A stretch of DNA of 64,000 bases from Escherichia coli (GTDB lineage: Bacteria > Pseudomonadota > Gammaproteobacteria > Enterobacterales > Enterobacteriaceae), in the NCBI RefSeq assembly GCF_044647545.1, contig NZ_CP172818.1; one strand, 5' to 3'. The notes beneath the pieces were generated by a model. That model saw only the letters and a list, made by a program, of their open reading frames with translations. It did not search any database and had not been told where the DNA came from. This document shows, piece by piece, positions 1 to 64,000 of the stretch. How positions within the stretch are numbered: the first letter of the stretch is position 1; each line of letters opens with the position of its first letter. A program made the position numbers and the translations under genes.

Positions 1-242
1 TTACCGCCTTCACGGTTATGACGAATATATTCAGGATGCGCAGGACGCAAATCCCGCGGAATCAGCATATCAATGTTATTGCCAATGACTTCTTCACGTT
101 TGTACCCCCAGAGCTTCTCTGCGGCGGGGTTGAAAAACATCACTTCATCATTTTCGTTAATTAACACCGCACCCATCATATTTTGCTCAAGGGCGGGGAA
201 AAAAATGCCATCGGCGGCATTATCCGCATCGGTTAGCTTCAT
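1..242 (-). CDS. dosP: c-di-GMP phosphodiesterase DosP, N-terminal 80 codons only (gene continues beyond window start)
   Basis: Reverse-complement translation from ATG at 242-240 gives MKLTDADNAADGIFFPALEQNMMGAVLINENDEVMFFNPAAEKLWGYKREEVIG..., a PAS-type N-terminus; lies immediately downstream of dosC as in the dosCP operon. Not in ORF track because it runs off the window edge. Confidence 0.8.
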   Translation of the reverse strand, partial: MKLTDADNAADGIFFPALEQNMMGAVLINENDEVMFFNPAAEKLWGYKREEVIGNNIDMLIPRDLRPAHPEYIRHNREGG

Positions 243-266
243 AATTACCTCTGCATCCTGACGCAT

Positions 267-1649
267 CTAAAGACTGGCTTTCCAGAGTTCAACACGGTTT
301 CTACCTCGTCTTTTGGCGATATACAGAGCTTCATCGGCTATTTGAATGAGGCGCTCATAGTCAGGATGACCATTAAACATGGCGGCACCGATGGAAAGTG
401 AGAGGGCAATATCCTCGCCGTTTGCGGCTTTCAGTTTGGTTTTCTCCACCCGACTGCGAATACGTTCTGCGGTACGTAACGTTTCGTTTTCCGAAGCTTC
501 AGTCAAAACAATGATAAATTCATCGCCACCGTAGCGGAAAACATAATCACTACTGCGGACGTTGTCATAAAAGGCCTGAGAGACTTTACGCAGAATTTCA
601 TCGCCAGTGTTATGGCCCCACGTATCGTTGATCTCTTTGAATTTATCAACGTCAATAATCAGCACTGACAGCGGTGTACCGGTCCGGTTGGCATGGGCAA
701 TTTCGCGTTTGAAGATCGTCGGCAGGAAACGACGGTTAAGTAATTTCGTCAGGACATCCATACCGACTTCGTGGCGCGATACTTCTTCAAACAATTCACG
801 CAGCAAGGTAATAATTTGCGATACGGTATTTCTTATCTGTAATAAAAATTTCACCCGTAAACTTCTGTTATTCAAATTCCTGGTGTTACGCATGGTTTGA
901 TTGAAAATACCGTCGAAATCCTGAATCAGACGGGAGATATGGCCCACTTCGGCAATGCCGCTAAAATAATGTCGACCTTTATGGTTAAACCACAGGCCAA
1001 AATCAGCCTGGCTTAAAGGCAAACTACTGCCTAAATCAGAATCCAGCAGGACTTTATAGATAATATCTATTTCCCATGAAAGTATTGAGGCTATTTGCCG
1101 TTCTTTTTCTTCTTCGGCATTTTCCAGTAACGAGAAGATACGATAGTTTTCATCTTCCTTTGAGGCACTACTGTCACTAAAGGTAAACGCGCGGGTCATC
1201 ACTTCCATAGCGATATCAATACTGTTAATAGAGAAATGGTAGACCTGAAGTTTTTCTGCGGCGGAATAATCCGAAGAGAAGATGACCGGATAGAGGATTT
1301 TTTTCAGCACCCGAAACCCCATCTCGACAATTTCTACCGGAATTCCTATGCGGGCATGCACTTCCGCGACGGTATGCTGGATTTGTATTAGCCTTTCGAC
1401 ATCGTCAACCTGGGCAGAAAGCACGTTAATAATCCAGCGTTCCATCGCACTTTTCAACTGCCGCTCAACTTGTTCATTACTCAAGAATTCTTCGGCATGT
1501 GGGTCGATACGGACAATTCGATAAAACTCAATACTCAGATAATGAGCATGCGCAACGGCAATTTCCGCGGCTTTAGCACGAATGAGCGGATCTGCTTGTT
1601 CGACAAGCCCGGTCCACTCATCTTTCATTCTTTTAAAATACATCTCCAT
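267..1649 (-). CDS. dosC: globin-coupled diguanylate cyclase DosC (DgcO), 460 aa
   Basis: 460-aa ORF with C-terminal GGDEF domain (RYGGDEFIIVL) and N-terminal sensor region; synteny with dosP and yddW. Confidence 0.9.
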   Translation of the reverse strand: MEMYFKRMKDEWTGLVEQADPLIRAKAAEIAVAHAHYLSIEFYRIVRIDPHAEEFLSNEQVERQLKSAMERWIINVLSAQVDDVERLIQIQHTVAEVHARIGIPVEIVEMGFRVLKKILYPVIFSSDYSAAEKLQVYHFSINSIDIAMEVMTRAFTFSDSSASKEDENYRIFSLLENAEEEKERQIASILSWEIDIIYKVLLDSDLGSSLPLSQADFGLWFNHKGRHYFSGIAEVGHISRLIQDFDGIFNQTMRNTRNLNNRSLRVKFLLQIRNTVSQIITLLRELFEEVSRHEVGMDVLTKLLNRRFLPTIFKREIAHANRTGTPLSVLIIDVDKFKEINDTWGHNTGDEILRKVSQAFYDNVRSSDYVFRYGGDEFIIVLTEASENETLRTAERIRSRVEKTKLKAANGEDIALSLSIGAAMFNGHPDYERLIQIADEALYIAKRRGRNRVELWKASL

Positions 1650-2024
1650 AATTCACACCCTTATAAGGCTGGGAAAGCAGACGGAATCAAAACGAAACGC
1701 AACGTGCGAGATCGACTAACTGCACCATACTCTCCTGAAATATGAAGATATACTGAAAACAAATAAGCGACTTAGGACAGTTTCAATCTACGCTACTGTT
1801 CTTCAGAAGAGTATAGCCCATCGTAATTATTTTTCGGTGACAGCGAATATCGTATGTTTTTTCATGTTCATACATTTTTATTAGGGGATTTATGACTGTT
1901 TAACTAAGTGTGGTTAATTGCGTAGTTAATTTGACTTAAGTAAGCATGATTACTAGTGGGATATTTCAAGAGGGTAACAAGCCGGGGGGAAAGCACCGGC
2001 TTGTTACAAAGTAAGAATGGGAGT

Positions 2025-3344
2025 TTAACTGCCCCAACGACTTTGCAGATAGCTGACCGCTTGTTGAGTCTGTGGCTTATTCAGATAGTCCTCACGGAAC
2101 AAGATTGTGCCGCTAATTTCTGGCACGGCATCGTTAAGATCGAGCTGCTTTTTCAGTTCCGGTACGCCGCCGTTAATCATCCAGTCTGGCTCTATCTTTG
2201 AAGGTTCACCCACTTTATAGAAGGCGATACCGATATACAGGCGGGTCCTGGTCGGTTTAACGACATCCGCCCACCATTTTGCCAACACGTCATAACGTGC
2301 GGCACTCCGTGAGAACGGCCAGTAAATTTGGGGAGCAATGTAATCCAGCAACCCTTGTTCCACCCATCGACGGGTATCAGCGTAGGATTCGTCATAGGCT
2401 GCCGCGCCTCGGGTATCGGAACCGAGCGGATCGTGTGATCGGTTACGCCACACGCCTGCCGGGCTAACGCCAAATTCGACTTCCGGCTTAATGCTTTTAA
2501 TGGTGTGCGATACCTTCGCAATTAACTGCTGAGTATTGTTGCGCCGCCAGTCTGCTTTTGACGCAAATGCGCCGCCGTATTTGCGGTACGTTTCGTTATC
2601 ATTTAGCCGTGAAGCTGGTGACTCAGTATAGAAATAGTCGTCAAACTGCACGCCATCTACCGGATAGCGGGAAACCACTTCTGCGACTATTGATGTGATC
2701 CAGTCCTGAACCTCAGGGATGCCCGGGTCGAGGACAAAGCGATCGCCGGACGTTCTGATCCAGTCGCGGTGTTGCACATAGACGCTGGCCGGTTGTTGAG
2801 ACAGGGTGCTATTCAGTTCCCTGATAGTACCGGGCTTCGTATTAACCGATACGCGATAGGGGTTAAACCATGCGTGTACTTTCATCCCACGCTTGTGGGC
2901 TTCGTCGAGCATGAATTGCAGCGGATCGTAACCCGGATTTTCACCAATCTTACCGGTCATAAGATCGGACCACGGCAAAATTTTCGATGGCCACAGGGCG
3001 GTACCATCCGGCTTGACCTGAAAAAAGACCGTGTTTATGCCGAGACGTTGCAGATGATCCAGTTTGTCGATCATCGCCTGTTGTTGTACACGGGCCCGGC
3101 TGGTGGGGTTACTAATGTTAACCGAGGAAAGCGGTGGCCAGTCGAGGCGAGACACCGTGGCCAGCCAGATGCCACGCATCGGTTGTGACGATTGTTGCGT
3201 CGTGGCTGGTGGCTTTGAACCCGCTGGTGGTGTCACCATGGACTCTGGAGGCGTGCTTTTACAACTACACAGTAAAAGTGCCAGTGCAACCAGTATCGCT
3301 GGTCTTCTAATCGCTAATTTCTCGTTTCGGGAGCAGATATCCAT
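2025..3344 (-). CDS. yddW: lipoprotein YddW, glycoside-hydrolase-like family, 439 aa
   Basis: 439-aa ORF with signal peptide and lipobox-like LLLCSC near N-terminus; position between dosC and gadC matches K-12. Confidence 0.8.
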   Translation of the reverse strand: MDICSRNEKLAIRRPAILVALALLLCSCKSTPPESMVTPPAGSKPPATTQQSSQPMRGIWLATVSRLDWPPLSSVNISNPTSRARVQQQAMIDKLDHLQRLGINTVFFQVKPDGTALWPSKILPWSDLMTGKIGENPGYDPLQFMLDEAHKRGMKVHAWFNPYRVSVNTKPGTIRELNSTLSQQPASVYVQHRDWIRTSGDRFVLDPGIPEVQDWITSIVAEVVSRYPVDGVQFDDYFYTESPASRLNDNETYRKYGGAFASKADWRRNNTQQLIAKVSHTIKSIKPEVEFGVSPAGVWRNRSHDPLGSDTRGAAAYDESYADTRRWVEQGLLDYIAPQIYWPFSRSAARYDVLAKWWADVVKPTRTRLYIGIAFYKVGEPSKIEPDWMINGGVPELKKQLDLNDAVPEISGTILFREDYLNKPQTQQAVSYLQSRWGS

Positions 3345-3420
3345 ATGTGCTGGTTTCCGGTAAACAGATGTGCGCTCATTCTCGTACTTATCCCGGTTAA
3401 GTCAATACGACAGCAAGCAC

Positions 3421-3449
3421 GAAAAAGGGAGCGATGAATTATCGCTCCC
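3421..3449 (-). terminator. rho-independent terminator downstream of gadC
   Basis: Inverted repeat gggagcgat / atcgctccc with 5-nt loop, followed on the minus strand by a T-run; sits just 3-prime of the gadC stop. Confidence 0.5.
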
Positions 3450-3474
3450 TTATCTTATAACCATTCAGACATGG

Positions 3475-5010
3475 TTAGTGTTTCTTGTCATTCATCACAA
3501 TATAGTGTGGTGAACGTGCACGCGGGTGCAGGAAGAAGTGACCTTTTGGTGCGTTCTGACTGTTGATTGGCTCCAGAGTAACGCCGGTATTCCCTTTGCC
3601 TTTACGATCATGAACAGCATAGAGAATAAAGGGCAGGGCAAGTACCACCAGGAAACTCACGACCAGTAATTCAACATACATATCAGTAGAGTCACCCTGG
3701 ATGTTATCCGGCGGCAGGAAGGAAACAATAAACGCCATAATTGAAGTCAGCAGACCGACAATAGCCACGACCAGTTTCACCCCTTTACCACCAGGGATAT
3801 TAAATGTGCGTTTTAAGTCAGGATGTTTAAGAACCAACACAATGTAGCCAATAAACAGCATGAAATAAGCACACAGATAAATCACCACCGTCAGCGCCAG
3901 TGCGATCAGGAAGGACATGTTGTTACCGCCACCGGTATTGGTGAGGATGATCAACGCGATAGAAGTAATCACCAACTGCGAAATGACCAGCGTTACCGGT
4001 ACGCCATTTTTGTTCATTTTAGCGAATGCCGCTGGCAGCAGGTTTTTCTGCGCTGTGACATACATCCCGCGAGAAGGACCAACAATCCAGGAAGCGATTT
4101 CCGCCAGAACACCCAGCAACAGCAGTGCGGAGATCACGCGAACCGTCCACTCAATTTCCGGTGCCACATGTGACATCAGAACGGTAAAGGTTTGCATTAC
4201 CCCTGCGGAGAGGTTGATTTCATTACCCGGAATGACCATCGCAATAGACAAACCGCCAACAGAGCTTAAGCAGATTGCCGCCACCATCAGCAGTAACATA
4301 GCCAGTGGATAGTCGCGCCCGGGGTTGCTCATTTCATTGACGTGGGTTGCGGAAGCTTCAACGCCCATATAACTCAAAATGAAGGCAACAAATACAACCA
4401 GAGTGCCCACTTTAGAGAAGTCAGGGAAGAAGGTCTTCGCATCCATTTCGATAGCAACGGGGGCACCGGAGTGCAGATAAATAGCCGCTAATGCGATCAA
4501 AATAAATGCAGGTAACAGGATACCGGCGAAGAAGCCAACTTTAGCAATTCGCGCCGTGTATTTCGTGCCACCAAACTGCGTTAATGCCAGCGCCCAAAGA
4601 ATGATGAGTGCTGCAATAGTTTTGGTAATGGGGTCTTCATTCAGCGCTGGCCATTTCAGGATGTAGGAGAGTGCCCCTAACACGAAATAGAGCATCGGAA
4701 TAAAACCAATGGCGATTTGCAGATAGCCAAATGAGATCGCTGCAAATCCCCATCTCGGCCCCAGAGTATTTGATACCCAGGCGAAGACGCCACCTTCTTC
4801 CCAGCCGTCGACGGTAGCCATTTCCGCAGCACAAAGTCCCACGGGAATAAACCATAAAATCCCGCCTAATAGCAGGAAGAAGACTAATGAAAAGCCCGAT
4901 GTTGCGAAGGTAGGGTATTCATAAACAGCCATTACCATCGATGCCGTTATGGCAAAGAATCCGAGTAATGTGAGCTGCTTAGCTTTACCTGTCTGTACTG
5001 ATGTAGCCAT
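3475..5010 (-). CDS. gadC: glutamate:GABA antiporter GadC, 511 aa
   Basis: 511-aa highly hydrophobic multi-pass ORF (APC-family-like) immediately downstream of gadB. Confidence 0.9.
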
Positions 5011-5165
5011 ATTATCCCCCTAAAACGGTATTCCTGTCGGAACCGCACCTGTTTTGTTCTGAAGCGTATTCAGAACAATATTTTCCGTTGCTAATGCCAG
5101 TGAACAGACTTTGGAAATTGTCCCGAAACGGGTGTGTTTCGGGACACCGTTACCGTTAAACGTTA

Positions 5166-6566
5166 TCAGGTATGTTTAAAGCTGTTCTGCTGGGCAATAC
5201 CCTGCAGTTTCGGGTGATCGCTGAGATATTTCAGGGAGGCTTTGTAGTCTTCCAGCAACAGTTCAGCAAAGTCCATTTCGAAGCCGCGACGACACATAAT
5301 GCGCATCACCACGATGTCAGTGGCTTCACCGCCGAGAGTGAAGGCCGGAACCTGCCAGCCGCGCAGACGCAGACGTTCAGAGAGGTCGTAGAGGGTGTAT
5401 CCCGGATCTTCACCATCTTTCAGTTTGAAGCAAACCGCTGGGATGCCTTCGTCCGGGCGACCGGTACAGATGAACTCATACGGCCCCAGTTTGGCGATTT
5501 CATCCGCCAGATAGGCAGCAACCTGGTAGGAAGCGTTCTGTACTTTGGTATAGCCTTCACGACCGAGGCGCAGGAATTCATAGTACTGTGCAATCACCTG
5601 ACCCGCCGGGCGGGAGAAGTTGATGGCGAAAGTCCCAATCTGACCACCGAGATAGTCAACGTTGAACACCAGTTCCTGCGGCAGCGCTTCTTCATCACGC
5701 CAGATAACCCAGCCGCAGCCTAGCGGAGCCAGACCGAATTTATGGCCTGAAGCACTGATCGATTTCACACGCGGCAGGCGGAAGTCCCAGACGATATCCG
5801 GGGCGACGAACGGTGCCAGGAAGCCACCGCTGGCGGCGTCGATGTGCATGTCGATGTCGATACCGGTGTCGGCCTGGAATTTATCCAGCGCATCGTGCAG
5901 CGGCTGCGGGAACTCATAGTTACCGGTATAGGTCACGCCGAAAGTCGGCACCACGCCGATGGTATTTTCGTCGCAGGCTTCAATCATGCGTTTCGGGTCC
6001 ATAAACAACTGACCGGGGCGCATAGGGATCTCACGCAACTCCACATCCCAGTAGCGGGCGAATTTATGCCAGCAGATTTGTACCGGACCGCACACCAGGT
6101 TTGGTTTATCCGTTGGCTTACCTGCAGCTTCCATACGCTTGCGCCAACGCCATTTCATCGCCATCCCGCCAAGCATACAGGCCTCGGAAGAACCAATGGT
6201 GTTGGTGCCAACGGCCTGACCATTTTTCGGTGCAGGCGCATGCCACAGATCGGCAACCATGTTTACGCAACGCAGGTCGATGGCTGCAGATTGCGGATAT
6301 TCTTCTTTGTCGATCCAGTTTTTGTTAATGGATAAATCCATCAACTTGTGGACATTTTCGTCGTCCCAGGTCTGGCAGAAAGTGGCCAGGTTCTGACGAG
6401 CGTTGCCATCAAGATATAATTCGTCATTGATAATCTGAAATGCGACATCGTCGCGCATTTCGTGCAGCGGAAAACGTTTTGATTCTGCGATAGTGGAAAT
6501 AGACTTTGCACCAAAACGTGAATCGAGTAGTTCCGACCTTAAATCCGTTACTTGCTTCTTATCCAT
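5166..6566 (-). CDS. gadB: glutamate decarboxylase GadB, 466 aa
   Basis: ORF track gives 489 aa; trimmed to internal start [21 protein letters not shown] (466 aa) which matches the recalled GadB N-terminus; PLP-dependent decarboxylase motif [10 protein letters not shown] present. Confidence 0.9.
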
Positions 6567-6645
6567 TTTAAACTCCTTAAAATGATTGGATCGCATTAAA
6601 AAAGTAGGATTTATCGATAAAGTAAGCAAGTGCAAAGGACTCGTG

Positions 6646-6665
6646 TTTAAATAACAAAATCCTAA
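6646..6665 (-). promoter_or_regulatory. GAD box (GadE/GadX-GadW binding element) in gadB promoter
   Basis: Reverse complement of 6646-6665 is TTAGGATTTTGTTATTTAAA, the 20-bp GAD box consensus, about 80 nt upstream of the gadB start codon. Confidence 0.75.
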
Positions 6666-7173
6666 TGTTATTTATCGTGAGATATTGCGTGAATAATATT
6701 TTTTCATTGAAAAACAATATAGTAGGGAGCTATTGGGTGGTGGCAAGGTGTTTTATGCTGTTATTTTTATGTGCATTCTGTGCCTCCTGAATTATCACGT
6801 AAAAATCAGACCTTAAAATATCATTATTAGTACGCGGTTATTTACTTTGAACGCATTTATAAAATTATTACATAAAAATAGCGAATATTGCTAAAATCCC
6901 CGCCAACGATGTGTTGACGGGGCTGTGATTATTTTGGCAATAATACCCCGGCATAAGTATTTACCGGATGAGAAAGATATTGTTTAACGCGTTAAGGGGG
7001 GGGGGAGTGAATGTCATTCTCGAGCTCTTTATTCGCTGCCGCTCCGCAAACAGTAACCTTCCACCTTCTCCCATCCACCACCGGCCCCTCGCCTCGTAGC
7101 CGGCCGGCGAGCCCCGGCAGCCAGCATGGTCTCTGCCGGGGTACGGGTGTGGTCAGGCCCCTACTGCCCTCTG

Positions 7174-7364
<191 letters not shown>

Positions 7365-7439
7365 TCAGGCAGGGGGGGGAAACCGAGTAATAATGGGATA
7401 TAAGGTAATGGTGAAAAAAGGATAAACGAAAAATAAGAA

Positions 7440-9150
7440 AGTCTATGTATGAATACGCGCTGGAACCCATGCGGTGGCCTGCCTGCAATTTGCTAAATGT
7501 TGGCTTCAGTTAACTTTATCGTTGAGTAGATAATGTAATTGTCTTGGATAGAAAAATGTGATGTAAATGTCTATATTAAAAAGATTTTAGGATGAAAATA
7601 AACTTGATGATTAAAAAAGGCTAAAAGTAAACTAGAATGAAAATTACCAATGTAACATATAAAAATGGTGAATAAACTGATAAGGTGGGAGGAAGAAAAA
7701 TAATGATAGGAATGTGCTATTCATAAATAATATCGGGTCGGTGAGAATTGATAAATTATATGTATCCGATAGATAAAAAATGATAAACTAAGAGGGTAAT
7801 GGAATTAGTATAATGAGGTAAGTAAAATAATTGATATGATCAGAGTGATGGCTGCTATCATGAAAAGTAGTTACTGAATTATGGTCTGTAAGGTATGTAG
7901 CTCTGGGGGCATAAATTAAATAAAAGAAACTATGTTCTGAGAAAAGAAATTATTATTAATAAAATGCATTGTGTAATGATAAAAATAGTTTTTGGCCTGC
8001 ATAGCGTTGTTGATAGTGAATAATTTAGGAAAAAATAGGCCAGCAGAGTGGGTTCCCTGGTCGCGCTGTCTTTGTTTGATGAACTCTTTCAGAGTGCTGT
8101 CATCATCATTTTTCATGAGTAAACTGCGACTCTTTTCAAGGTAAAAACAGTAATCAATTTGAGATTAATTGAAAACTGGAGGGCTGGCTCCTGCATTCTG
8201 CTCCTGCCGGGCTTTTTGATTTGTTAATTTTGATTTATTGTAGGGTGGCTGGCTGCTGTGATAAACTCTTTAAGCTTGCATCTTTTAACGACCTGCGGAT
8301 TGGGGGGCAAGGTTATTTTTGCTTAGATCGTGTTGTAGATAACTGATGTTTTCTACTGTATAGAAAGGAATAATCGTTTTACGTATAGAATTGGCTTAAG
8401 TCTGTGTTGGGGTTATGCGGGTAATTTGACTGATGGGAAAAATTTGGGTAATTTCAGAATGGAATATTTCTGTAAACAGTGAGAATAAGAGGTTATCAGG
8501 TAGATTTTTATGTGGCTGCTTTTTTATCTGCAACAGGGCAGCAAGGAAACGCCATCAGCTTAAGGTCTTTGGAATGCTGATATGGCTGATAAGAGCTGTA
8601 GGTAAAATCATTGGGAAATAGCTGTATAATTACGGGTGAAGTCACAATAAAATTGGGGTGTGAGTGCGGATAGGTCTGACTTTAAGCCTGCCGAGCGGCA
8701 AGGACATCGATAACGCACATTATGGAGGTAAAGAGAATAATTGTATGATACTGTCCGTCAGTTGTCGAGAATGCGTAACCTGATAAGAATAGGAAGCGTA
8801 GTAGTTACTTACTCAGATAATGCTTTGATTGATCAGGTGAGGATTATTTGGCAGGTCGGAGCTTTAAGCAGGTAGCTTGGCTGGTGTGTGGCGATAGTGT
8901 TGGTGTGCGTGGGGTTGAAGTTGGGTGCCTTGGGGTGTGTTGGTGGGGGTGTCTTGGAAGTAAGAGAGAAAAAGTGGGTGAGTGAAGTAGTAAAAGAGAA
9001 GAGAAGAAGGGAAAAAGTAAAGGTTAAGTAATTGAAAAAATGAATAAAATGAGAAAATGGAATTGAGATAAAATAATATGAAAGGTTATGAAATGATAAA
9101 TATGTGATGAATGTATTATTTATTAATAAATATATCGCCTAAAAACAACG
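7440..9150. other. cytosine-depleted, AT-rich low-complexity non-coding block
   Basis: Plus strand is almost entirely G/A/T, with G/T-rich and G/A-rich stretches; no credible ORF, RBS or RNA gene; occupies the position of pqqL-yddB-yddA-ydeM-ydeN in K-12. Confidence 0.8.
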
Positions 9151-9203
9151 CGGGGCAGGGAATGACTGCATTTAATTTTTAGTAGGGTGCGTGGTGACTC
9201 TCG

Positions 9204-9974
9204 TTAGCAAATAATCAATCCTAAAGCACTCATCGTGTTGTCCGTGTTCATACCGGTGTGCCTTTGACAACGGTACTCCTTAGAAACTCTCTTTGGACTG
9301 TTGCCGAAATGTTTGCGGAACGCATAAATAAAATAAGATGTACTCGCATAACCACATTGTTCGGCAATTTTATTGACTGAACCTTCTACGCGTATCAAAT
9401 TTTTTGCGTGCTGCATTCTGGCATCTAAAAGAATCTGTGAGAATGTCGTTTGCTCTTGCTTTAGTTTTTTCTTCAACAGGCTTTCACTGATGTACAGGCA
9501 GTCACAAATATCTTTCAGCTTCCATGGGTGCGCCAGCTTCATGTTGACAATATTTCTCACTTTCCCGGAAACGGATAGCACACCGTTAGTTAATAGTGTA
9601 ATGAAACCTTTGCATGCGGCAAAAATAGACAGGCAAGAAAAAAGCAAAAGTTCTGAAAAATTATGATGATTGCGTTCTTCCGAGTTGAGATAAGCAATCA
9701 TTTCATTAAGCAATCCAGTCGGTACATTTGAAGCACGTAAAAACTTCGCAGGAACAGGCACCGTCACTGTCTGAATGTTAGTGCATTGTAGATATTTTTT
9801 AATGGTATTTTCATTAAATCCGATTTCTTTGAAATGCCGCTCATAAGGTTCAAAATGCGTACGAACAGCGTTATCTACCATCAGGATCTCGCCGTCAGAG
9901 AAGGCGTAATCTTTATCTAAAATGTTAGCGTTGAAGGCATGATGAATAAATATAACAGAACAAACGAGCGACAT
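9204..9974 (-). CDS. ydeO: AraC-family acid-resistance transcriptional regulator YdeO
   Basis: 256-aa ORF with C-terminal AraC-type HTH; directly downstream of safA and ydeP as in the K-12 safA-ydeO operon. Confidence 0.8.
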   Translation of the reverse strand: MSLVCSVIFIHHAFNANILDKDYAFSDGEILMVDNAVRTHFEPYERHFKEIGFNENTIKKYLQCTNIQTVTVPVPAKFLRASNVPTGLLNEMIAYLNSEERNHHNFSELLLFSCLSIFAACKGFITLLTNGVLSVSGKVRNIVNMKLAHPWKLKDICDCLYISESLLKKKLKQEQTTFSQILLDARMQHAKNLIRVEGSVNKIAEQCGYASTSYFIYAFRKHFGNSPKRVSKEYRCQRHTGMNTDNTMSALGLIIC

Positions 9975-10048
9975 TTTATCTCCTTAAAACAATAAAGTTT
10001 TTATCGATACTTTTTTAACATTTCATATTTATAATTTGCTGTTTATTT

Positions 10049-10246
10049 TCAGTCTTGCAAACTATTGATAATGAAATGTGTAAGATCTCTTGCAATGCGA
10101 CCCATTTCTGAAATACCCAGCTGATCAATTGCCGAAAAAATGGCTATCAACGTAAGTGTCAGTAATAAGACAACCACAATTACAGACATGATTTCTTTAT
10201 AGTTGTCTCTTTGCGTGATTTTGTTTTTCACTGTGGTCGCATGCAT
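10049..10246 (-). CDS. safA: two-component connector membrane protein SafA, 65 aa
   Basis: 65-aa ORF with single hydrophobic segment (VIVVVLLLTLTLIAIFSAI), located between ydeP and ydeO. Confidence 0.8.
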   Translation of the reverse strand: MHATTVKNKITQRDNYKEIMSVIVVVLLLTLTLIAIFSAIDQLGISEMGRIARDLTHFIINSLQD

Positions 10247-10493
10247 TTCAAATATGTTTATTTAGCGGATAACGTTAAAAATCGTTAATCAGTATGCTTA
10301 ATATAACAGGCTGGAAAAAAGAGGAAATAGGACTGGTGCTTCAGTACTGAGCGGAGTTTCTTACAGCTGTAGGCAGAAGTTTATATCTTATAGTATGTAG
10401 TCTAATTTAATCCATGTGAGCAAATTGCGCGATAATAGTCAATGAGGAATTCTTCTGCTGTGCGGATGACAGCAGAAGAAATGAGAAGAGGCA

Positions 10494-12773
10494 TTAATTT
10501 GATGGTTCTAATTCAACCGGAATACTTTTATAGCCAGGAATGCCACTTAATGGATCGTGGTTATCAAGTGTTAGCATGTGATTCGATTCTGGAAAATAGG
10601 TCACCAGTGAGCGGTCAGCCATAGGGTAAATGACCACTTTTAATCTATCCATGCGTCGTGAGCTACGTTTACCGTCTGGCGTGAGTGCAATAAGATTAAC
10701 TCTTTCGCCGTTTTTTACACGGCAAATTTTAGCTTGTTTAGCACTCATAAAGACCACATCTCGTTGACCGAATACACCTCGATAGCGATCATCCATACCA
10801 TAAATCGTCGTGTTGTACTGATCGTGGCTGCGTACTGTCGCCATGACCAGTTTACTGTTAAACGCTGAAGAGGGATCTTCTAACAGCCCTTTGCTGGTAA
10901 TGAAATTAGCCTTACCTGACGGCGTCATCCAGCGCCTTTCAGCAGCTGCGTTTATCAGGTGAAAACCACCAGGATGACGGATGCGCTGGTTATAGTCGGC
11001 AAACTCTGGCAGCACAGCTTCAATGTCATTGCGAATGCGATCATAATCTTCCACCAGATACTCCCAGGCTACCACGCTCTGGGGTAGTGCTGCCTGCGCG
11101 ATTCCCGCGACCACTGCACACTCTGATTTCAGCATTACACCGGCGGGTTTTAACACACCACGCGAGGCATGAATCATCGACATTGAATCTTCAACGGTTA
11201 CCGCCTGCGCACCGCTTTTTTGCATGTCAATCTCGCTACGTCCCAGAACCGGCAGAATATAGCTATGCCGTGCGGTCAGCAGATGAGAGCGGTTAAGCTT
11301 AGTGGCTACGTGTACAGCCAAATCTAATTGCGTTAACGGTACAGCGCTCGCTTCCCGATCTGGCATTGCCAGCGCAAAGTTGCCCCCCATGCAGATCAAT
11401 GCTCGAGCTTGCCCCGTACATATTGCTTGCATGCTGGCAATTGCAGCATGTCCAGGTGCATGAGGTGGGGTGAAACCATAGCGCTCACCCAGGCGAGCCA
11501 GAAACTCTGCAGACGGTTTCTCGGTGATACCGACGGTTCGGTCGCCCTGTACATTAGAGTGACCTCGTAGTGGGCAGATGCCCGCACCAGGCTTGCCAAT
11601 GTTACCTTTCATCAACAGCAGATTGACCAGTTGCTGTACATTCTGGGTACCATGTTCGTGCTGAGTGATCCCCATTCCGTAACAGATAATGGTGCGGTCG
11701 GCAGCGGCATATGCATCAGCCAGTTCGGCGATTTGAGTCTGACTTAGTCCAGAAATACGCTCGATATCTTTCCACTCGGAATTGAGAACGTCACGGCGTA
11801 GCTCGTCAAAGCCGACGGTATGCGTTTGAATAAATTCGTCATCCAGCAATGAGGGCCGACCTGCGGCGCTTGCAGCATCATCGCGCTCAATTAACAGGCG
11901 CATCATCCCCTTGAGCAACGCCATATCACCACCAATGCGCACGTTGTAGTAGGCACTGGCCAACTGAGTCTCAGAGTTCGTCAGCATTTCAAACGGGTTT
12001 TGCGGTGCGGTAAATCGCTCCAGGCCACGTTCCTGTAGAGGATTGATGGCGATCATTTTCGCTCCCCGTTTCACTAAAGCGCGCAACGAACTCAGCATGC
12101 GAGGGTGGTTTGTACCAGGGTTATGCCCAATGCAAATGACTAAATCGCATTTCTCAAAGTCTTCCAGCAACACGGTCCCTTTACCTACACCGATACTCGC
12201 TGCCAAACCCACACTGGTCGGTTCATGGCACATGTTGGAGCAGTCGGGGAAGTTATTGCTCCCGTATTCACGGGCAAAAAGCTGATAAAGAAAGGCAGCT
12301 TCATTGGAAGTGCGGCCCGAAGTATAGAATTCAACCTGATTGGGATCACTATAGCTTTGAAGGCGTTCGCCAATTTCGTCGAAAGCTTGTTGCCAGCTTA
12401 ATGGCTTGTAACAGTCGCTGACGGCATCATATTTCAAAGGCTGGGTGAGACGCCCCGCAGCCTCAAGCTCGTGGTCTCCCCAGGTAAGTAATGATTGAAC
12501 CGTATTCTCAGCAAAGAAAGAGGCGTTTACCTGCTTATCCGTGACTTCCCAGGCGATTGCTTTTGCGCCGTTTTCACAAATGTCGAATGACGCACTGTGC
12601 TTAGGATCTGGCCATGCACAACCCGGACAGTCAAAGCCCTCTGGCTTATTCATGTCAAACATGGCAATAACATCCTGGCGTATATCCATCTGCTTACGTA
12701 CTGCATTCGCTACGGATTTAACAGCACCCCAACCACCGGCAGCCCCCTGGTAGGATTCAATTTTTTTCTTCAT
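10494..12773 (-). CDS. ydeP: molybdopterin oxidoreductase YdeP (formate-dehydrogenase-like), 759 aa
   Basis: 759-aa ORF with N-terminal Cys cluster (CPGCAWPDP...C...C) typical of molybdopterin oxidoreductases; synteny. Confidence 0.9.
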
Positions 12774-16294: not shown

Positions 16295-16546
16295 TCGACT
16301 GTAGGCACTGTCGGATAAGTTATAAAAACCTTGCGTAGAATAGCGATATCCTGCGACCTGGATATTGGTTCCACAACAAGTTTATTGCAGCACTTGTTGA
16401 AGAGAGTATTTGCAAAGACATTTTATGTCGCTAAATAACATGACGATTTCATTATGCATGTTATTTATAAACCGTGACTAAACAGAATATTATTGCGAAC
16501 AAGGGAAGTGTCAGGAAAGGTCAAGAGCGACCAATGGCTTATATGG

Positions 16547-17159: not shown

Positions 17160-18482
17160 TTACTTAATACCGTATTCTCGGCTTAACCGGTCGTGCAACC
17201 TCAACACATTGGTTTCAACTGCCGTCACCACGTTCTCCGGAAAATCTGTCGGTAATGAAGTCTTCACGTTATCCAGTGCTGCTGGAATCATTCTGGCAAA
17301 GTCACTCAGGATTTCATGCATCTGCACTTCCGGGAATCTCAGCACCTTTGCTGTCGCCAAAAAATGTCGCGGATAAATTTTATCGATTGCCGTTTTTTTG
17401 CCTTTGGATGCGTTAAGCCCCATTGCCAGTTTGAGATCGCTGATGTGTATTCCCGTACCGCCAAGGACCGGAAATGCTGAAATGATGTCGTAAAATGGCG
17501 TGAGTCGATAACTGCCGCCAGCCTGAATAAATACGGAGAAGTTTTTTGCATGACCGTCCGTTGCGCCAATCAACCACTGGAAGACCTGGAATTTCATAAA
17601 ATCATAGCGATCTTTCAGCGCCTCGCTGGACCCCATCAAAAAAGCCATGATCCGCGCGATGCCTGGGCCTCCATCTGATTCATATTTCACCGATGAAGGT
17701 AAACCGAATGTCTGACACATATCCTCCTGTGGCAAGCGAAGTAAAACCGTTCGCTCAGCATTCCAACGCCTGTCAAAACGTTCGACCGCTAACGCGCGCA
17801 CATTTCCCGCTTTAATGATTTCTGCGTCCGGAACATTCAACCCAAGTTCTTTCGCCAGCAGCAGACAGTAATACTCATTATCAACGCTTTGGCTGAGATC
17901 GAGCGTCGCATTGGGCTGCCTGATTTCGCCAATCGGTAATTTAATGATGTGCGTCGTCGGCGTTATTCCTTTCGGAATGCACCAGTCATTGCCTATTCTG
18001 AGCAGTGCTGTCTTCTCCTGTGCGCCAGCAACCGAGATGCGAAAGTCATTTTCTTCTCTAATCATGCCTAGCGGGATATCTGCTTTATAAGCCGTTAATA
18101 CTTCTTCAAGTCTGGCTTCAGTAAGCTTTTCCCATGCCATTATCGGATGCGTTACGGTTTCGTCTTCGGGTATTAACGTCACGGCACCAACGCTGTCTCG
18201 CCCTATTTCTGACAATAAATCAAACGGTTGTCTGGATTTGGCATGATAACGTTTAACGATCCGGTCACGTACAATCGGGCTATCGGGTAACAGGTTATCG
18301 AAGAAGTTAAATACGGCATCAGAGGTGATATTCCCCCTCTGCAATGGCAGCGAAAGTGACAACGGTCTGGCATAACGGCTTGCTAACCACTCCGGTGCAT
18401 ACTTAAAGGTGTGCGCGCCGTTGGCTAACTTCGTTAACTCGCCTACCCGCTGGTTGTTCATCCAAGTGACAAGTTTAGGCAT
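17160..18482 (-). CDS. hipA: HipA serine/threonine kinase toxin, 440 aa
   Basis: ORF track 459 aa; trimmed to MPKLVTWMNNQRVGELT start (440 aa) whose ATG overlaps the hipB stop by 1 nt. Confidence 0.9.
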   Translation of the reverse strand: MPKLVTWMNNQRVGELTKLANGAHTFKYAPEWLASRYARPLSLSLPLQRGNITSDAVFNFFDNLLPDSPIVRDRIVKRYHAKSRQPFDLLSEIGRDSVGAVTLIPEDETVTHPIMAWEKLTEARLEEVLTAYKADIPLGMIREENDFRISVAGAQEKTALLRIGNDWCIPKGITPTTHIIKLPIGEIRQPNATLDLSQSVDNEYYCLLLAKELGLNVPDAEIIKAGNVRALAVERFDRRWNAERTVLLRLPQEDMCQTFGLPSSVKYESDGGPGIARIMAFLMGSSEALKDRYDFMKFQVFQWLIGATDGHAKNFSVFIQAGGSYRLTPFYDIISAFPVLGGTGIHISDLKLAMGLNASKGKKTAIDKIYPRHFLATAKVLRFPEVQMHEILSDFARMIPAALDNVKTSLPTDFPENVVTAVETNVLRLHDRLSREYGIK

Positions 18483-18748
18483 TACCACTCCAGATTTTGC
18501 TGTTCTGTTGATTCTGGCGAGGCATTTTTCGCGTCGCATAGCGTCATTGAGAGTTCAAGCGACTGTAAAATCTTAAAAAATGTCGTGAGCGTGGTATTGT
18601 CAGGGTTGTTTTCGAAATTGGAAATCGTCGCCTGCTTAATACCAATTTTTTTCGCCAGCTCGCTCTGCGTCCAGCCATTTTGCTGGCGAACCAGTTTCAT
18701 TGCATTCGCCAATTGCGTTGGGCTATAGATCTTCTGAAAGCTCATCAT
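18482..18748 (-). CDS. hipB: HipB antitoxin, HTH-XRE DNA-binding protein, 88 aa
   Basis: Trimmed to MMSFQKIYSPTQLANAMKLVRQQNGWTQSELAKKIGIKQATISNFENN... (88 aa); helix-turn-helix motif; immediately upstream of hipA. Confidence 0.9.
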   Translation of the reverse strand: MMSFQKIYSPTQLANAMKLVRQQNGWTQSELAKKIGIKQATISNFENNPDNTTLTTFFKILQSLELSMTLCDAKNASPESTEQQNLEW

Positions 18749-18959
18749 GTCATACGTCCACAGCAAGTTTATCCGCTTAAGGGGATATTATAAGTTTTAT
18801 CCTTTAGTGAGGATAAGTCAATCTGGAAACACATCTTATCCGCTCTACGGGATAAACGCTGCGATATCCGCGATCGCGGATAAAAAGGAGGATTTAAAAG
18901 TCGTTTGAAGTCGGCAATATTAAGCCGCATGCATCTTCGACATGCGGCTTATACGGTTT

Positions 18960-37119: not shown

Positions 37120-37199
37120 AGGCCAGAAATCCAGACTATCAATACTGACCGAACCAATCCCCCAAATACCATAATAATCGGCAATCAGACAGTAATTAA

Positions 37200-37500
37200 A
37201 TACCTAACACTTACTCTCATACTTATTTTTCCCCAAACCTTATCCCCACGACCAAACGACAAAAATAAACATCATATAGAAATTGATACCAGAAACCCCC
37301 CCATCTTTACACATAAACCACACCCACAAACGACGCAAGAAGACGATAAACCAAAAAAGAAAACCCCCCAAACGAAAAAAAAAAAAAGGAAAACCAAAAA
37401 AAAAAAAAAAAAAAAAAAAAAAAGAAAAAAAAAAGAAAAAAAAAAAAAAAAGAAAGGGAAAAAAATAAAAAAGAAAAAAAAAAAAAAAAAGATAGCATGT
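37200..37500. repeat. A/C-rich low-complexity block with long poly-A runs
   Basis: Plus strand nearly devoid of G/T from about 37200, then A-runs up to about 27 nt punctuated by single G (37376-37490); yields Lys-rich/Phe-rich spurious ORFs. Confidence 0.9.
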
Positions 37501-43820: not shown

Positions 43821-43842
43821 AAGGCCCATTCGGGCCTTTTTT
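43821..43842. terminator. bidirectional rho-independent terminator between convergent ydeA and marC
   Basis: Hairpin aaggccc-att-cgggcctt flanked by T-run on plus strand. Confidence 0.55.
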
Positions 43843-44506
43843 AGTGGTACGTTTTAATGATTTCCAGGATGCCGTTAATAATAAACTGCACCCCCATACA
43901 TACCAGCAGGAATCCCATCAGACGGGAGATCGCTTCAATGCCACCCTTGCCCACCAGCCGCATAATCGCGCCGGAGCTGCGTAGGCTTCCCCACAAAATA
44001 ACCGCCACCAGGAAAAAGATCAGCGGCGGCGCAACCATCAGTACCCAATCAGCAAAGGTTGAACTCTGACGCACTGTGGACGCCGAGCTAATAATCATCG
44101 CTATGGTTCCCGGACCGGCGGTACTTGGCATTGCCAGTGGTACAAAAGCAATATTGGCGCTGGGTTCATCTTCCAGCTCTTCCGACTTGCTTTTCGCTTC
44201 CGGTGAATCAATCGCTTTCTGTTGCGGAAAGAGCATCCGAAAACCGATAAACGCGACGATTAAGCCGCCTGCAATTCGCAGACCGGGAATCGAAATGCCA
44301 AATGTATCCATCACCAGTTGCCCGGCGTAATACGCCACCATCATGATGGCAAAGACGTACACCGAGGCCATCAACGACTGACGATTACGTTCGGCACTGT
44401 TCATGTTGCCTGCCAGGCCAAGAAATAACGCGACAGTTGTTAATGGGTTAGCTAACGGTAGTAACACCACCAGCCCCAGGCCAATTGCTTTAAATAAATC
44501 TAACAT
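43841..44506 (-). CDS. marC: inner membrane protein MarC, 221 aa
   Basis: Hydrophobic 221-aa ORF divergent from marRAB. Confidence 0.85.
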
Positions 44507-44654
44507 TGGTGGTTGTTATCCTGTGTATCTGGTTTATCAGCGAAAAGTATAAGGGGTAAACAACGATAAAGTGTCACTCTTTAGCTAACCTTGCATCGCA
44601 CTGACCAAAACTTGAACCGATTTAGCAAAACGTGGCATCGGTCAATTCATTCAT

Positions 44655-44717
44655 TTGACTTATACTTGCCTGGGCAATATTATCCCCTGCAACTAATTAC
44701 TTGCCAGGGCAACTAAT
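44655..44717 (+). promoter_or_regulatory. marO promoter-operator with two MarR-binding palindromes
   Basis: -35-like TTGACT followed by TACTTGCCTGGGCAATATTAT (site I) and TTGCCAGGGCAACTAAT (site II) immediately upstream of the GTG start of marR. Confidence 0.8.
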
Positions 44718-45152
44718 GTGAAAAGTACCAGCGATCTGTTCAATGAAATTATTCCATTGGGTCGCTTAATCCATATGGTTAATCAGAAGAAAGATCGCCT
44801 GCTTAACGAGTATCTGTCTCCGCTGGATATTACCGCGGCACAGTTTAAGGTGCTCTGCTCTATCCGCTGCGCGGAGTGTATTACTCCGGTTGAACTGAAA
44901 AAGGTATTGTCGGTCGACCTGGGGGCGCTGACCCGTATGCTGGATCGCCTGGTCTGTAAAGGCTGGGTGGAAAGGTTGCCGAACCCGAATGACAAGCGCG
45001 GCGTACTGGTAAAACTTACCACCAGCGGCGCGGCAATATGTGAACAATGCCATCAATTAGTTGGCCAGGACCTGCATCAAGAATTAACAAAAAACCTGAC
45101 GGCGGACGAAGTGGCAACACTTGAGCATTTGCTTAAGAAAGTCCTGCCGTAA
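44718..45152 (+). CDS. marR: multiple-antibiotic-resistance repressor MarR, 144 aa (GTG start)
   Basis: Winged-helix MarR-family ORF; first gene of marRAB. Confidence 0.9.
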
Positions 45153-45172
45153 ACAAAAAAAGAGGTATGACG

Positions 45173-45556
45173 ATGTCCAGACGCAATACTGACGCTATTA
45201 CCATTCATAGCATTTTGGACTGGATCGAGGACAACCTGGAATCGCCACTGTCACTGGAGAAAGTGTCAGAGCGTTCGGGTTACTCCAAATGGCACCTGCA
45301 ACGGATGTTTAAAAAAGAAACCGGTCATTCATTAGGCCAATACATCCGCAGCCGTAAGATGACGGAAATCGCGCAAAAGCTGAAGGAAAGTAACGAGCCG
45401 ATACTCTATCTGGCAGAACGATATGGCTTCGAGTCGCAACAAACTCTGACCCGAACCTTCAAAAATTACTTTGATGTTCCGCCGCATAAATACCGGATGA
45501 CCAATATGCAGGGCGAATCGCGCTTTTTACATCCATTAAATCATTACAACAGCTAG
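45173..45556 (+). CDS. marA: AraC/XylS-family activator MarA, 127 aa
   Basis: Trimmed to [46 protein letters not shown]... (127 aa); ORF track alternative start at 45167. Confidence 0.9.
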
Positions 45557-45587
45557 TTGAAAACGTGACAACGTCACTGAGGCAATC

Positions 45588-45806
45588 ATGAAACCACTTT
45601 TATCCGCAATAGCAGCTGCGCTTATTCTCTTTTCCGCGCAGGGCGTTGCGGAACAAACCACGCAGCAGTTTGTTACTTCCTGTGCCAATGTCGTGGTTGT
45701 TCCCCCATCGCAGGAACAACCACCGTTTGATTTAAATCACATGGGTACTGGCAGTGATAAGTCGGATGCGCTCGGCGTGCCCTATTATAATCAACACGCT
45801 ATGTAG
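45588..45806 (+). CDS. marB: periplasmic protein MarB, 72 aa
   Basis: 72-aa ORF with signal peptide, third gene of mar operon. Confidence 0.85.
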   Translation: MKPLLSAIAAALILFSAQGVAEQTTQQFVTSCANVVVVPPSQEQPPFDLNHMGTGSDKSDALGVPYYNQHAM

Positions 45807-45836
45807 TTTGTTCTGGCCCCGACATATCGGGGCTTA

Positions 45837-46736
45837 TTAACTTCCCACTTTTACCGCTTTACGCCACCGCAAGCCAAATACATTGATATACAGCCCGGTC
45901 ATAATGAGCACCGCACCGAAAAATTGCAGGCCCGTTAAGCGTTCATCCAGCAATAGTGCCGCACTTGCCAGTCCAACTACAGGCACCAGTAACGATAACG
46001 GTGCAACCCGCCAGGTTTCATAGCGTCCCAGTAACGTCCCCCAGATCCCATAACCAACAATTGTCGCCACAAACGCCAGATACATCAGAGACAAGATGGT
46101 GGTCATATCGATAGTAACCAGACTGTGAATCATGGTTGCGGAACCATCGAGAATCAGCGAGGCAACAAAGAAGGGAATGATTGGGATTAATGCGCTCCAG
46201 ATTACCAGCGACATCACCGCCGGACGCGTTGCGTGCGACATGATCTTTTTATTGAAGATGTTGCCACACGCCCAACTAAATGCTGCCGCCAGGGTCAACA
46301 TAAAGCCGAGCATCGCCACATGCTGACCGTTCAGACTATCTTCGATTAACACCAGTACGCCAAAAATCGCTAAGGCGATCCCCGCCAATTGTTTGCCATG
46401 CAGTCGCTCCCCGAAAGTAAACGCGCCAAGCACGATAGTAAAAAACGCCTGTGCCTGTAACACCAGCGAAGCCAGTCCAGCAGGCATACCAAAGTTAATG
46501 GCGCAGAACAGAAAGGCAAACTGCGCAAAACTGATGGTTAATCCATACCCCAGCAGCAAATTCAGTGGTACTTTCGGTCGTGCGACAAAAAAGATAGCCG
46601 GAAAAGCAACCAGCATAAAGCGCAAACCGGCCAACATCAGCGGTGGCATGTTATGAAGCCCCACTTTGATGACCACAAAATTTAGCCCCCATACGACCAC
46701 TACCAGTAGCGCCAACACCCCATCTTTTCGCGACAT
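45837..46736 (-). CDS. eamA: cysteine/O-acetylserine exporter EamA (YdeD), 299 aa
   Basis: ORF track 306 aa; trimmed to MSRKDGVLALLVVVVWGLNF start (299 aa); DMT-superfamily 10-TM protein. Confidence 0.85.
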   Translation of the reverse strand: MSRKDGVLALLVVVVWGLNFVVIKVGLHNMPPLMLAGLRFMLVAFPAIFFVARPKVPLNLLLGYGLTISFAQFAFLFCAINFGMPAGLASLVLQAQAFFTIVLGAFTFGERLHGKQLAGIALAIFGVLVLIEDSLNGQHVAMLGFMLTLAAAFSWACGNIFNKKIMSHATRPAVMSLVIWSALIPIIPFFVASLILDGSATMIHSLVTIDMTTILSLMYLAFVATIVGYGIWGTLLGRYETWRVAPLSLLVPVVGLASAALLLDERLTGLQFFGAVLIMTGLYINVFGLRWRKAVKVGS

Positions 46737-48244: not shown

Positions 48245-48340
48245 ATGCTGGGTAATATGAATGTTTTTATGGCCGTACTGGGAATAATTTTATTTTCTGG
48301 GTTTCTGGCCGCGTATTTCAGCCACAAATGGGATGACTAA
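48245..48340 (+). CDS. mgtS: small membrane protein MgtS (YneM), 31 aa
   Basis: ATG at 48245: MLGNMNVFMAVLGIILFSGFLAAYFSHKWDD stop; below the ORF-track size cut-off; followed by an intrinsic terminator. Confidence 0.8.
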   Translation: MLGNMNVFMAVLGIILFSGFLAAYFSHKWDD

Positions 48341-48367
48341 TGAACGGAGATAATCCCTCACCTAACC

Positions 48368-48408
48368 GGCCCCTTGTTACAGTTGTGTACAAGGGGCCTG
48401 ATTTTTAT
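48368..48408 (+). terminator. rho-independent terminator of mgtS
   Basis: Stem ggcccctt / aaggggcc with 14-nt loop followed by TGATTTTTA. Confidence 0.6.
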
Positions 48409-48415
48409 GACGGCG

Positions 48416-48441
48416 AAAAAAAACCGCCAGTAAACCGGCGG
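48416..48441 (-). terminator. minus-strand rho-independent terminator (dgcZ transcript or 3-prime end of a small RNA such as MgrR)
   Basis: On minus strand: ccgccggtttactggcgg hairpin followed by TTTTTTTT; lies in the mgtS-dgcZ intergenic region where K-12 encodes the sRNA MgrR (strand and exact ends not verified here). Confidence 0.45.
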
Positions 48442-48558
48442 TGAATGCTTGCATGGATAGATTTGTGTTTTGCTTTTACGCTAACAGGCATTTTCCTGCA
48501 CTGATAACGGATCGTTGACACAGTAGCATCAGTTTTCTCAATGAATGTTAAACGGAGC

Positions 48559-59436: not shown

Positions 59437-60011
59437 CTACGGCAGTGCTGGCCATTCAATATCCTGTGCAGTTGACGTATCAACACGGTTCAGCAATACC
59501 CGATACTTTTTCCATGCTTCCAGCAACGGGGTTTCTTCCTCCGTTGCAATTTCCAGATCTGCAGCATCCTGAAGCGGCGCAATATGCTCACTGGCTACCT
59601 GCATCAGGTTGTTTTTTTTTCTTCCGCTTCCCGTATCCGAAACAGTTTTTCTGCTTCCTCATCATTCACCCAGGATACGCCGTCCCACTTCTGATACTCC
59701 CCTGCTGGCGACAACCAGGTGACATTCTCTGGTAGCGGTCCGAGTTCAGAAATAAACAATGCGTCCCCCGACGCCACGTCATAGACCGTTTTACCACGAT
59801 GGTCTTCAACAATATTCCACGATTCATTTTCACTGTTAAAAACTGCCACAAAGCCAGCAGGAATTTCCGGTGGGGCGATATCTGTAGAATTAGCTGGCAG
59901 CCCTGTATGAGGTGGAATATATGCGTCACCTTCACCAATAAACTCATTAGTTCCGGCCAGCAGGTTATAAATTTTTACGGTACGTGATTGTTCACTCATT
60001 CTGAATGCCAT
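59437..60011 (-). pseudogene. tfaQ: tail-fibre assembly protein TfaQ, disrupted by a -1 frameshift in an A9 homopolymer
   Basis: ORF 59604-60011 (135 aa) ends ...EEKKTT stop inside a run of nine A (coding strand; T-run at 59612-59620). Shifting frame by one A continues as [58 protein letters not shown] to a stop at 59437-59439, giving the expected 191-aa protein. Confidence 0.8.
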
Positions 60012-63347: not shown

Positions 63348-63579
63348 TAAGCAAAAAAGCTCCCGAAGGAGCCTTCATTTTCACTTTCTTAAATCTAACG
63401 ACAGATGGCTAACATTTAAGTATTGTGAAATATTATCAAATGTAATCATCATTGATTTACAAAAGATACATTTTGCCCCGAAAGGATTTCTGTCAGAAAC
63501 ATCAAAAGATGATGTTCTATACTGAGAACCATGGCAACACGGGCATCTAAAGTGAATATGGTTTGTAATATTTTCTACC

Positions 63580-63792
63580 TCAAAGTGCCACTACATGAAC
63601 AGCTGCAGGGCCTTTAGGTCCGTTCTCAATACCAAATTCGACTTCCTGATTCTCAGTTAACGTTTTGAAATCGTTGCTCTGAATAGCTGAGAAATGCACA
63701 AACACATCTTTGCTACCATCTTTCGGCGTGATGAAACCAAAACCTTTTTCAGGGTTAAACCATTTCACTAAACCAGTCATTTTGTTAGACAT
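63580..63792 (-). CDS. cspI: cold-shock protein CspI, 70 aa
   Basis: [38 protein letters not shown]... with RNP1 motif KGFGFI and RNP2-like VFVHF; long AT-rich 5-prime leader upstream (63793-64000) as typical for csp genes. Confidence 0.9.
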
Positions 63793-64000
63793 CATTATTA
63801 CCTTTTGAAGAAGTTAGCCCTTGGGCAGAATGGTCCGAAAAAAAAATATCAGAGAGAAAAACCAACAAGGAAATCTCAAGAGGTACAAATAATAAAATTA
63901 TAACAATGACTGCTTCAGATAATTTTGTAACAAACCAGAACACCATTAACGCATGATTAACCAACCATAGCAAGGATTACTTTTGTAAAGAAAAACACAC

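Follow-up and report, generated by a model that had tools for sequence, protein, structure and literature searches.

The marRAB control region, marO, occupies positions 44507-44717 of the window (the whole 64-kb stretch of DNA that was analyzed), and its 211 bp coincide exactly with the intergenic gap between marC and marR. The locus comprises the following genes and intervals.

43841-44506, minus strand: marC, a 221-aa open reading frame (NCBIfam equivalog NF008228, 376.6 bits against a cut-off of 162).
44507-44717, no strand: marO promoter-operator, of the same length as in K-12, with five single-nucleotide polymorphisms (SNPs), all at or before 44605.
44718-45152, plus strand: marR, with a GTG start and 144 aa (equivalog NF008565, 318.4 bits against a cut-off of 240).
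45153-45172, plus strand: marR-marA spacer, 20 nt, located 5' of the marA Shine-Dalgarno sequence.
45173-45556, plus strand: marA, 127 aa, an AraC/XylS-type activator (NF008564, 294.3 bits against a cut-off of 202).
45588-45806, plus strand: marB, 72 aa (NF007508, 138.8 bits against a cut-off of 87).

All four open reading frames (MarC, MarR, MarA and MarB) exceed the curated cut-offs of their NCBIfam equivalogs. A 1501-bp query covering 44400-45900 matches 5,421 of 5,426 complete E. coli genomes, and the RefSeq annotation of the matching genomes at this locus lists marC, marR, marA, marB and eamA. The region is identified as E. coli marO on the basis of the equivalog scores of the four flanking open reading frames and the RefSeq annotation of the matches. 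The marC gene is divergent from marR, and its product is a membrane protein of the NAAT family. The MarR protein matches NF008565 over its full length (residues 1-144) and also matches PDB entries 3VOE, 5H3R and 1JGS; it is identical to the 3VOE chain at 141 of 144 residues, and the differences fall at the same three positions that distinguish it from K-12 MarR. An Rfam scan of marO found no RNA family.

Within marO, the promoter, operator and activator elements are located as follows.

44619-44638, plus strand: marbox GATTTAGCAAAACGTGGCAT, 16 bp upstream of the -35 hexamer and identical to K-12.
44655-44660, plus strand: -35 hexamer TTGACT of the marRAB promoter, from a promoter scan and identical to K-12.
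44663-44677, plus strand: MarR site I, TACTTGCCTGGGCAA, with its core TTGCCTGGGCAA at 44666-44677, from a repeat search and identity to K-12; binding is predicted from the sequence.
44678-44683, plus strand: -10 hexamer TATTAT, from the promoter scan and identical to K-12.
44689-44717, plus strand: duplication-prone segment, with 9-nt direct repeats GCAACTAAT at 44689-44697 and 44709-44717 (spacing 20).
44698-44712, plus strand: MarR site II, TACTTGCCAGGGCAA, with its core TTGCCAGGGCAA at 44701-44712, from a repeat search and identity to K-12; a predicted binding site.

Each MarR core is a 5-bp inverted repeat, TTGCC/GGCAA, flanking two central bases, and a repeat finder reports sites I and II as two copies of the 15-nt direct repeat TACTTGCC[T/A]GGGCAA that are 93% identical. 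The two marRAB hexamers are separated by a 17-bp spacer and match 10 of 12 consensus positions in the promoter scan. The core of site I lies inside this spacer and abuts the -10 hexamer, and transcription would start some 7-8 nt 3' of the -10, near 44691. The core of site II holds AGGG (44706-44709), which is the sole Shine-Dalgarno-like purine run, and ends 5 nt 5' of the GTG codon at 44718. Upstream of these elements, the marbox is the binding site of the activators MarA, SoxS and Rob. Read on the opposite strand, its inner 15 nt (44621-44635) give ccacgttttgctaaa, the MarA site recovered between marC and marR by ChIP-seq (PMC5684230). On the minus strand, positions 44679-44707 hold a sigma-70-like match directed at marC (CTGGCA, a 17-nt spacer and GATAAT; 9 of 12 consensus positions). 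This match overlaps MarR sites I and II and may be due to chance, as two such matches were found in the scanned region against 1.1 expected.

The exact pattern TTGCCWGGGCAA occurs twice in the window, both times on the plus strand and 35 bp apart, against 0.05 occurrences expected by chance. None of 100 shuffles gave two matches, and allowing one mismatch adds just two more matches in the window, both unrelated. Since the motif is short (12 nt), the palindromes could be read as chance matches with no functional operator. This reading conflicts with the presence of two exact matches where 0.05 were expected, both of them in the marC-marR gap, and with MarR ChIP-seq in E. coli, which recovers the mar promoter alone (PMC5684230). 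It is refuted by the comparison with K-12, because the region is base-identical to the experimentally characterized K-12 operator. The first-pass annotation had described 44507-44717 as marO and reported two near-identical palindromic MarR sites overlapping the -35/-10 region and the ribosome-binding site of marR. Both the coordinates and the description are borne out: the gap is flanked by marC on the minus strand and marR on the plus strand, no other exact match to the palindrome exists in the 64 kb, and the repeats sit in the promoter spacer (site I) and over the AGGG run (site II). The features of marO that can be tested, namely gene context, two palindromes and a marbox, are all present.

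In the mar system, RNA polymerase is excluded by a MarR dimer bound at site I in the -35/-10 spacer, and a second dimer, bound at site II in the interval from the transcription start to the marR start codon, covers the ribosome-binding site. Together, the two dimers keep marR-marA-marB repressed. MarR leaves the operator when inducers such as salicylate are present or when it is oxidized through copper. MarA, SoxS or Rob then occupies the marbox, located 16 bp before the -35 hexamer, and activates transcription. Fis, acting just upstream of the marbox, gives a modest boost.

The base-by-base comparison uses a gapped alignment to K-12 MG1655 (NC_000913.3, 1618000-1620600). The K-12 marO (NC_000913.3, 1618909-1619119) has the same 211 bp and the same order, marC <- marO -> marR-marA-marB. 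There are zero differences from K-12 in the alignment of 44606-44874, so the canonical sequence is retained at the marbox, the -35 and -10 hexamers, MarR sites I and II and the start codon. The half of marO nearer to marC differs from K-12 by five SNPs: 44533 G>T, 44564 G>C, 44588 G>A, 44601 T>C and 44605 A>C. The marR gene carries six substitutions, three of which alter the protein: A53E (44875 C>A), G103S (45024 G>A) and Y137H (45126 T>C). The marR-marA spacer is 20 nt long against 19 in K-12, with an A7 run in place of A6 through an extra A at about 45155. The first-pass annotation had seen no deviation from the canonical arrangement and had proposed an alignment to reference marO and marR as the check. 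That alignment returns an equal 211-bp length and an unchanged 44606-44874, and the statement therefore stands for the operator core; it does not hold for the five distal SNPs, the three MarR substitutions and the additional spacer A.

In the other genes of the locus, marC shows 14 synonymous differences from K-12 and 0 amino-acid differences, marA differs at 0 of 384 nucleotides, synonymous changes included, and MarB carries S5L, P27Q, V28F and H44Q. Divergence from K-12 is about 1.4-2.4% for each of marC, marO, marR and marB, against an invariant marA between them. In marB, one base is deleted and another is inserted three positions away (45665-45669), which converts CAGCCAGTTGTT of K-12 to CAGCAGTTTGTT. 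This compensated frameshift changes Pro27-Val28 to Gln-Phe and is common to ST648-type genomes, as are S5L and H44Q. Sequencing error as the source of the K-12 differences was rejected, since at least 30 independent complete genomes have the same 1501-bp locus.

Mar-phenotype alleles of resistant mutants and clinical isolates map to this same locus, but this copy is without their lesions. Compared with K-12, no point change, deletion or duplication was found in either MarR site, and marR has no frameshift, stop or deletion, its 144-aa open reading frame being intact. A 20-bp insertion of TACTTGCCAGGGCAACTAAT at the marR start has been described in chloramphenicol-resistant mutants (PMC8757474). 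Here the 20-bp unit TACTTGCCAGGGCAACTAAT (44698-44717) is present in one copy bracketed by the GCAACTAAT repeats, which could promote its duplication by slippage; the 20-bp duplication of site II is absent from this marO, whose length equals that of K-12. Selection experiments have also yielded substitutions in the helix and wing of MarR, including G69E, T72P, R73C and L78P (PMC10649057). The MarR of this genome has no such substitutions in the DNA-reading helix or wing, and its altered positions 53, 103 and 137 fall outside the invariant or nearly invariant columns of the ortholog alignment.

A 76-bp core of the operator (44650-44725) has a match in 5,416 of 5,426 genomes (5,418 records). The band of at least 99% identity, which includes end-trimmed alignments, holds 4,798 of the 5,418 records, and about 44 of 60 evenly sampled rows are perfect over the full length. 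These counts identify the core of this marO as the majority allele. One mismatch in the core is seen in about 10% of the sampled genomes. For UPEC957C (CM177858), 28 nt (37%) of the 76-bp core align, which suggests a marO disrupted by insertion or deletion. In ECONIH5 (CP026202) and DETEC-S792 (CP116067), marC and the marC-proximal part of marO are replaced by a RelE/ParE-family toxin gene, accompanied in DETEC-S792 by an HTH-domain gene that is presumably the antitoxin; the breakpoint in both is equivalent to about 44590, a short way upstream of the presumed Fis site. In ECONIH5, site II is also altered to TTGTCAGGGCAA and 1 bp is deleted between the marbox and the -35 hexamer; neither change is present here. 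The operators of ECONIH5 and DETEC-S792 and those with one mismatch would be more interesting than this intact marO.

The origin of the differences from K-12 is apparent from a marO alignment set comprising K-12, O157:H7, UPEC_U013, C5, C1, ECONIH5 and DETEC-S792. At 44605, K-12 stands alone within this set, and at 44588 it is joined by C1; the alleles of this genome at both positions are also found in O157, UPEC_U013 and C5. The T at 44533 is common to UPEC_U013, the C at 44564 to C1, and the C at 44601 to C1 and DETEC-S792, and a probe detects C at both 44601 and 44605 in 506 of 5,426 genomes. The 20-nt marR-marA spacer is also present in UPEC_U013, C1 and DETEC-S792, and G103S and Y137H occur in all six other non-K-12 genomes sampled. 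The differences from K-12 are shared natural polymorphisms, none of which is private to this sequence. The common non-K-12 MarR allele with G103S and Y137H is WP_000843419.1 (O157:H7, UPEC_U013, ECONIH5, C5 and DETEC-S792), to which the MarR of this genome adds A53E. That K-12 is itself the outlier at two of the five distal SNPs calls for caution when marR or marO ‘mutations relative to K-12’ are taken as resistance determinants.

Martin and Rosner are said to have reported in 1997 that Fis binds 20 bp abutting the marbox, and this accessory site is presumably 44599-44618 on the plus strand, directly upstream of the marbox. A Fis consensus-like 15-mer, GACCAAAACTTGAAC, is located at 44603-44617 and differs from K-12 by one change (44605). 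The Fis consensus is GNNYAWWWWWTRNNC. Position 44605 corresponds to an unspecified N in this consensus, 44601 is outside the 15-bp core, and the candidate 15-mer as read keeps its A/T-rich center as well as the outer G and outer C. It has to be considered whether the five distal SNPs change Fis stimulation of the marRAB promoter, or the divergent marC promoter, to give a quantitatively different mar response. In favor of such a change, SNPs 44601 and 44605 fall within or border the presumed Fis site, no more than 506 of 5,426 genomes carry the minority allele C at 44601, and 44533 is 27 nt upstream of the marC start codon. Against it, K-12 is the one with the unusual base at 44605 and 44588, and the specified positions of the Fis consensus are unchanged. 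An altered response of this kind is extremely unlikely. Fis binds ‘within marO upstream the marbox’ and contributes just an approximately two-fold effect (PMC7355843). Judged from the bases that are conserved, any effect of the distal SNPs on the presumed Fis site is likely to be small.

The three MarR substitutions were evaluated using an alignment of 84 MarR orthologs and an AlphaFold model built on the ortholog alignment (mean pLDDT 86.5). The model is a winged helix-turn-helix with alpha3/alpha4 and a beta wing. In this model, residue 53 is in the short linker between alpha2 (40-52) and alpha3 (57-64), ahead of the DNA-reading alpha3/alpha4, residue 103 falls where alpha5 begins, residue 137 belongs to the C-terminal helix, and all three are outside the recognition helix (68-81) and the wing (84-100). 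Positions 52 and 53 are the least conserved of the whole protein among the 84 orthologs. At position 53 the orthologs have V (26), G (25), A (10), E (9), T (6) and others, with the commonest residue at about 30-40%, and Glu53 is native in the MarR of Buttiauxella and other genera. Position 103 is likewise variable (E 39, D 18, S 10, G 3), as is position 137 (Y 27, H 22), with the commonest residue at about 30-50%. G103S and Y137H occur in susceptible isolates and have no association with resistance (PMC4317672, PMC8597741).

A 33-nt probe centered on the A53E codon detects this substitution in 86 of 5,426 complete genomes, and the 25 kb around mar is at least 99% identical in just 82 records. 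Both counts fit a single clone, and A53E is apparently a marker of that clone, ST648. At least 30 complete genomes, ST648 strains among them, match the 1501-bp locus (44400-45900) at 100% identity. The mar locus is 100% identical in strains ST648 (CP008697), MS6198 (CP015834) and IMT16316 (CP023815), which encode the MarR WP_022645711.1 with A53E. Strains ST648 and MS6198 are typed as ST648 and phylogroup F (PMC8281228), and IMT16316 is typed as ST648 (PMC6003029). The sources of isolates in the A53E lineage include wild birds, a dolphin, dogs and wastewater.

In the literature searched, A53E appears in one survey only, where it is reported from highly ciprofloxacin-resistant isolates with MICs of 256-512 ug/mL (PMC5177599). 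This raises the alternative that A53E weakens MarR or alters its response to inducers, such that marRAB is partly derepressed throughout ST648 and the lineage has a head start toward multidrug resistance even with its operator intact. The substitution is rare, it is confined to a lineage known for multidrug resistance and seen in isolates with the MICs given above, and residue 53 sits between Cys51 and Cys54, just before the helix-turn-helix. These points are countered by the variability of position 53, one of the two most variable in MarR orthologs, with Glu native in several genera, and by the isolation sources of the lineage given above, which fit clonal inheritance rather than repeated selection. 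The A53E isolates of the survey also carry gyrA S83L/D87N and AcrR H115Y, and the effect of an efflux inhibitor on them was no more than additive (PMC5177599). Of the 49 genomes identified by a probe for AcrR H115Y, 30 were listed, and at least 27 of these are part of the A53E/ST648 set. Since AcrR H115Y is restricted to the same clone, the association of A53E with resistance is explained by lineage, and the surveyed A53E isolates are most simply members of ST648. Partial derepression through A53E is thus very unlikely. There is a similarly slight chance that Glu53 subtly retunes MarR, either in its sensitivity to inducers or to copper and oxidation or through a slightly weaker grip on the operator; if true, this would amount to a lineage-wide shift in mar inducibility in a multidrug-resistant clone with a textbook operator. 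That A53E is a resistance mutation was rejected as the main interpretation in view of conservation, structural position and clonal distribution, and this interpretation is kept as a low-probability rival.

Conservation across orthologs and the structural model suggest instead that A53E is likely neutral. We infer that MarR with A53E, G103S and Y137H is a functional repressor and, on that basis, that the mar operon is normally repressed and inducible. The variant MarR would repress normally and the operon would stay off unless induced. The three changes would then be lineage markers and not resistance mutations: A53E together with AcrR H115Y marks the ST648 clone, and G103S with Y137H is the common non-K-12 state. 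Overall, the locus is very probably a canonical E. coli marRAB marO, carried on an ST648/phylogroup F chromosome and predicted to function like its K-12 counterpart. The differences from K-12 are no ground for inferring mar-mediated resistance in this genome. The mar operator is an already known system, among the best-studied regulatory regions of E. coli, and this wild-type-looking, repressible copy contains nothing new; with the operator intact, it is minor as a discovery.

Elsewhere in the window, several stretches look corrupted; despite these, the mar locus is corroborated base-for-base by many independent genomes. When 37159-37490 is compared with strain ST648 (segment positions 17161-17653), the G's, then the T's and then the C's are progressively lost, until about 37380-37490 is almost pure poly-A, followed by an abrupt return to a perfect match. 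About 320 bp of the reference are represented by about 180 bp in this stretch, which falls on the 5' end of a sensor diguanylate cyclase gene and on the sequence upstream of that gene. In all of the 25 best-matching genomes listed, the match breaks into two pieces here instead of running through. The stretch looks like a base-calling or assembly artifact rather than biology. A corrupted-looking region at 7150-7380 contains poly-G runs at about 7176-7222 and 7250-7362. Another spans 7659-8190 and is gappy over 7659-8055; one segment aligns to ydeM of strain ST648 at 78% identity with 75 gap openings. The sequence is nearly free of C from about 8900, and the roughly 170 nt of 8960-9130 have none. 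For 5500-11000 as a whole, the best database match covers 72% at about 94.5% identity.

Structural differences from strain ST648 are also present. Positions 1-7650 have no match in the 24.5 kb of that strain upstream of the shared region (CP008697, 2424000-2448500). At 16372, about 4.6 kb of strain ST648 (a fimbrial usher, a chaperone and IS2) is missing, and 17220-18828 is absent from the strain ST648 reference. At 22041, a run of four C's is missing inside an autotransporter pseudogene. Three Rfam families reach their gathering scores at other positions in the window.

48334-48547, minus strand: STnc560, an Hfq-binding sRNA in the ydeE-dgcZ interval beside mgtS.
59471-59668, minus strand: IS009.
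63534-63951, minus strand: cspA-type thermoregulatory 5' UTR.
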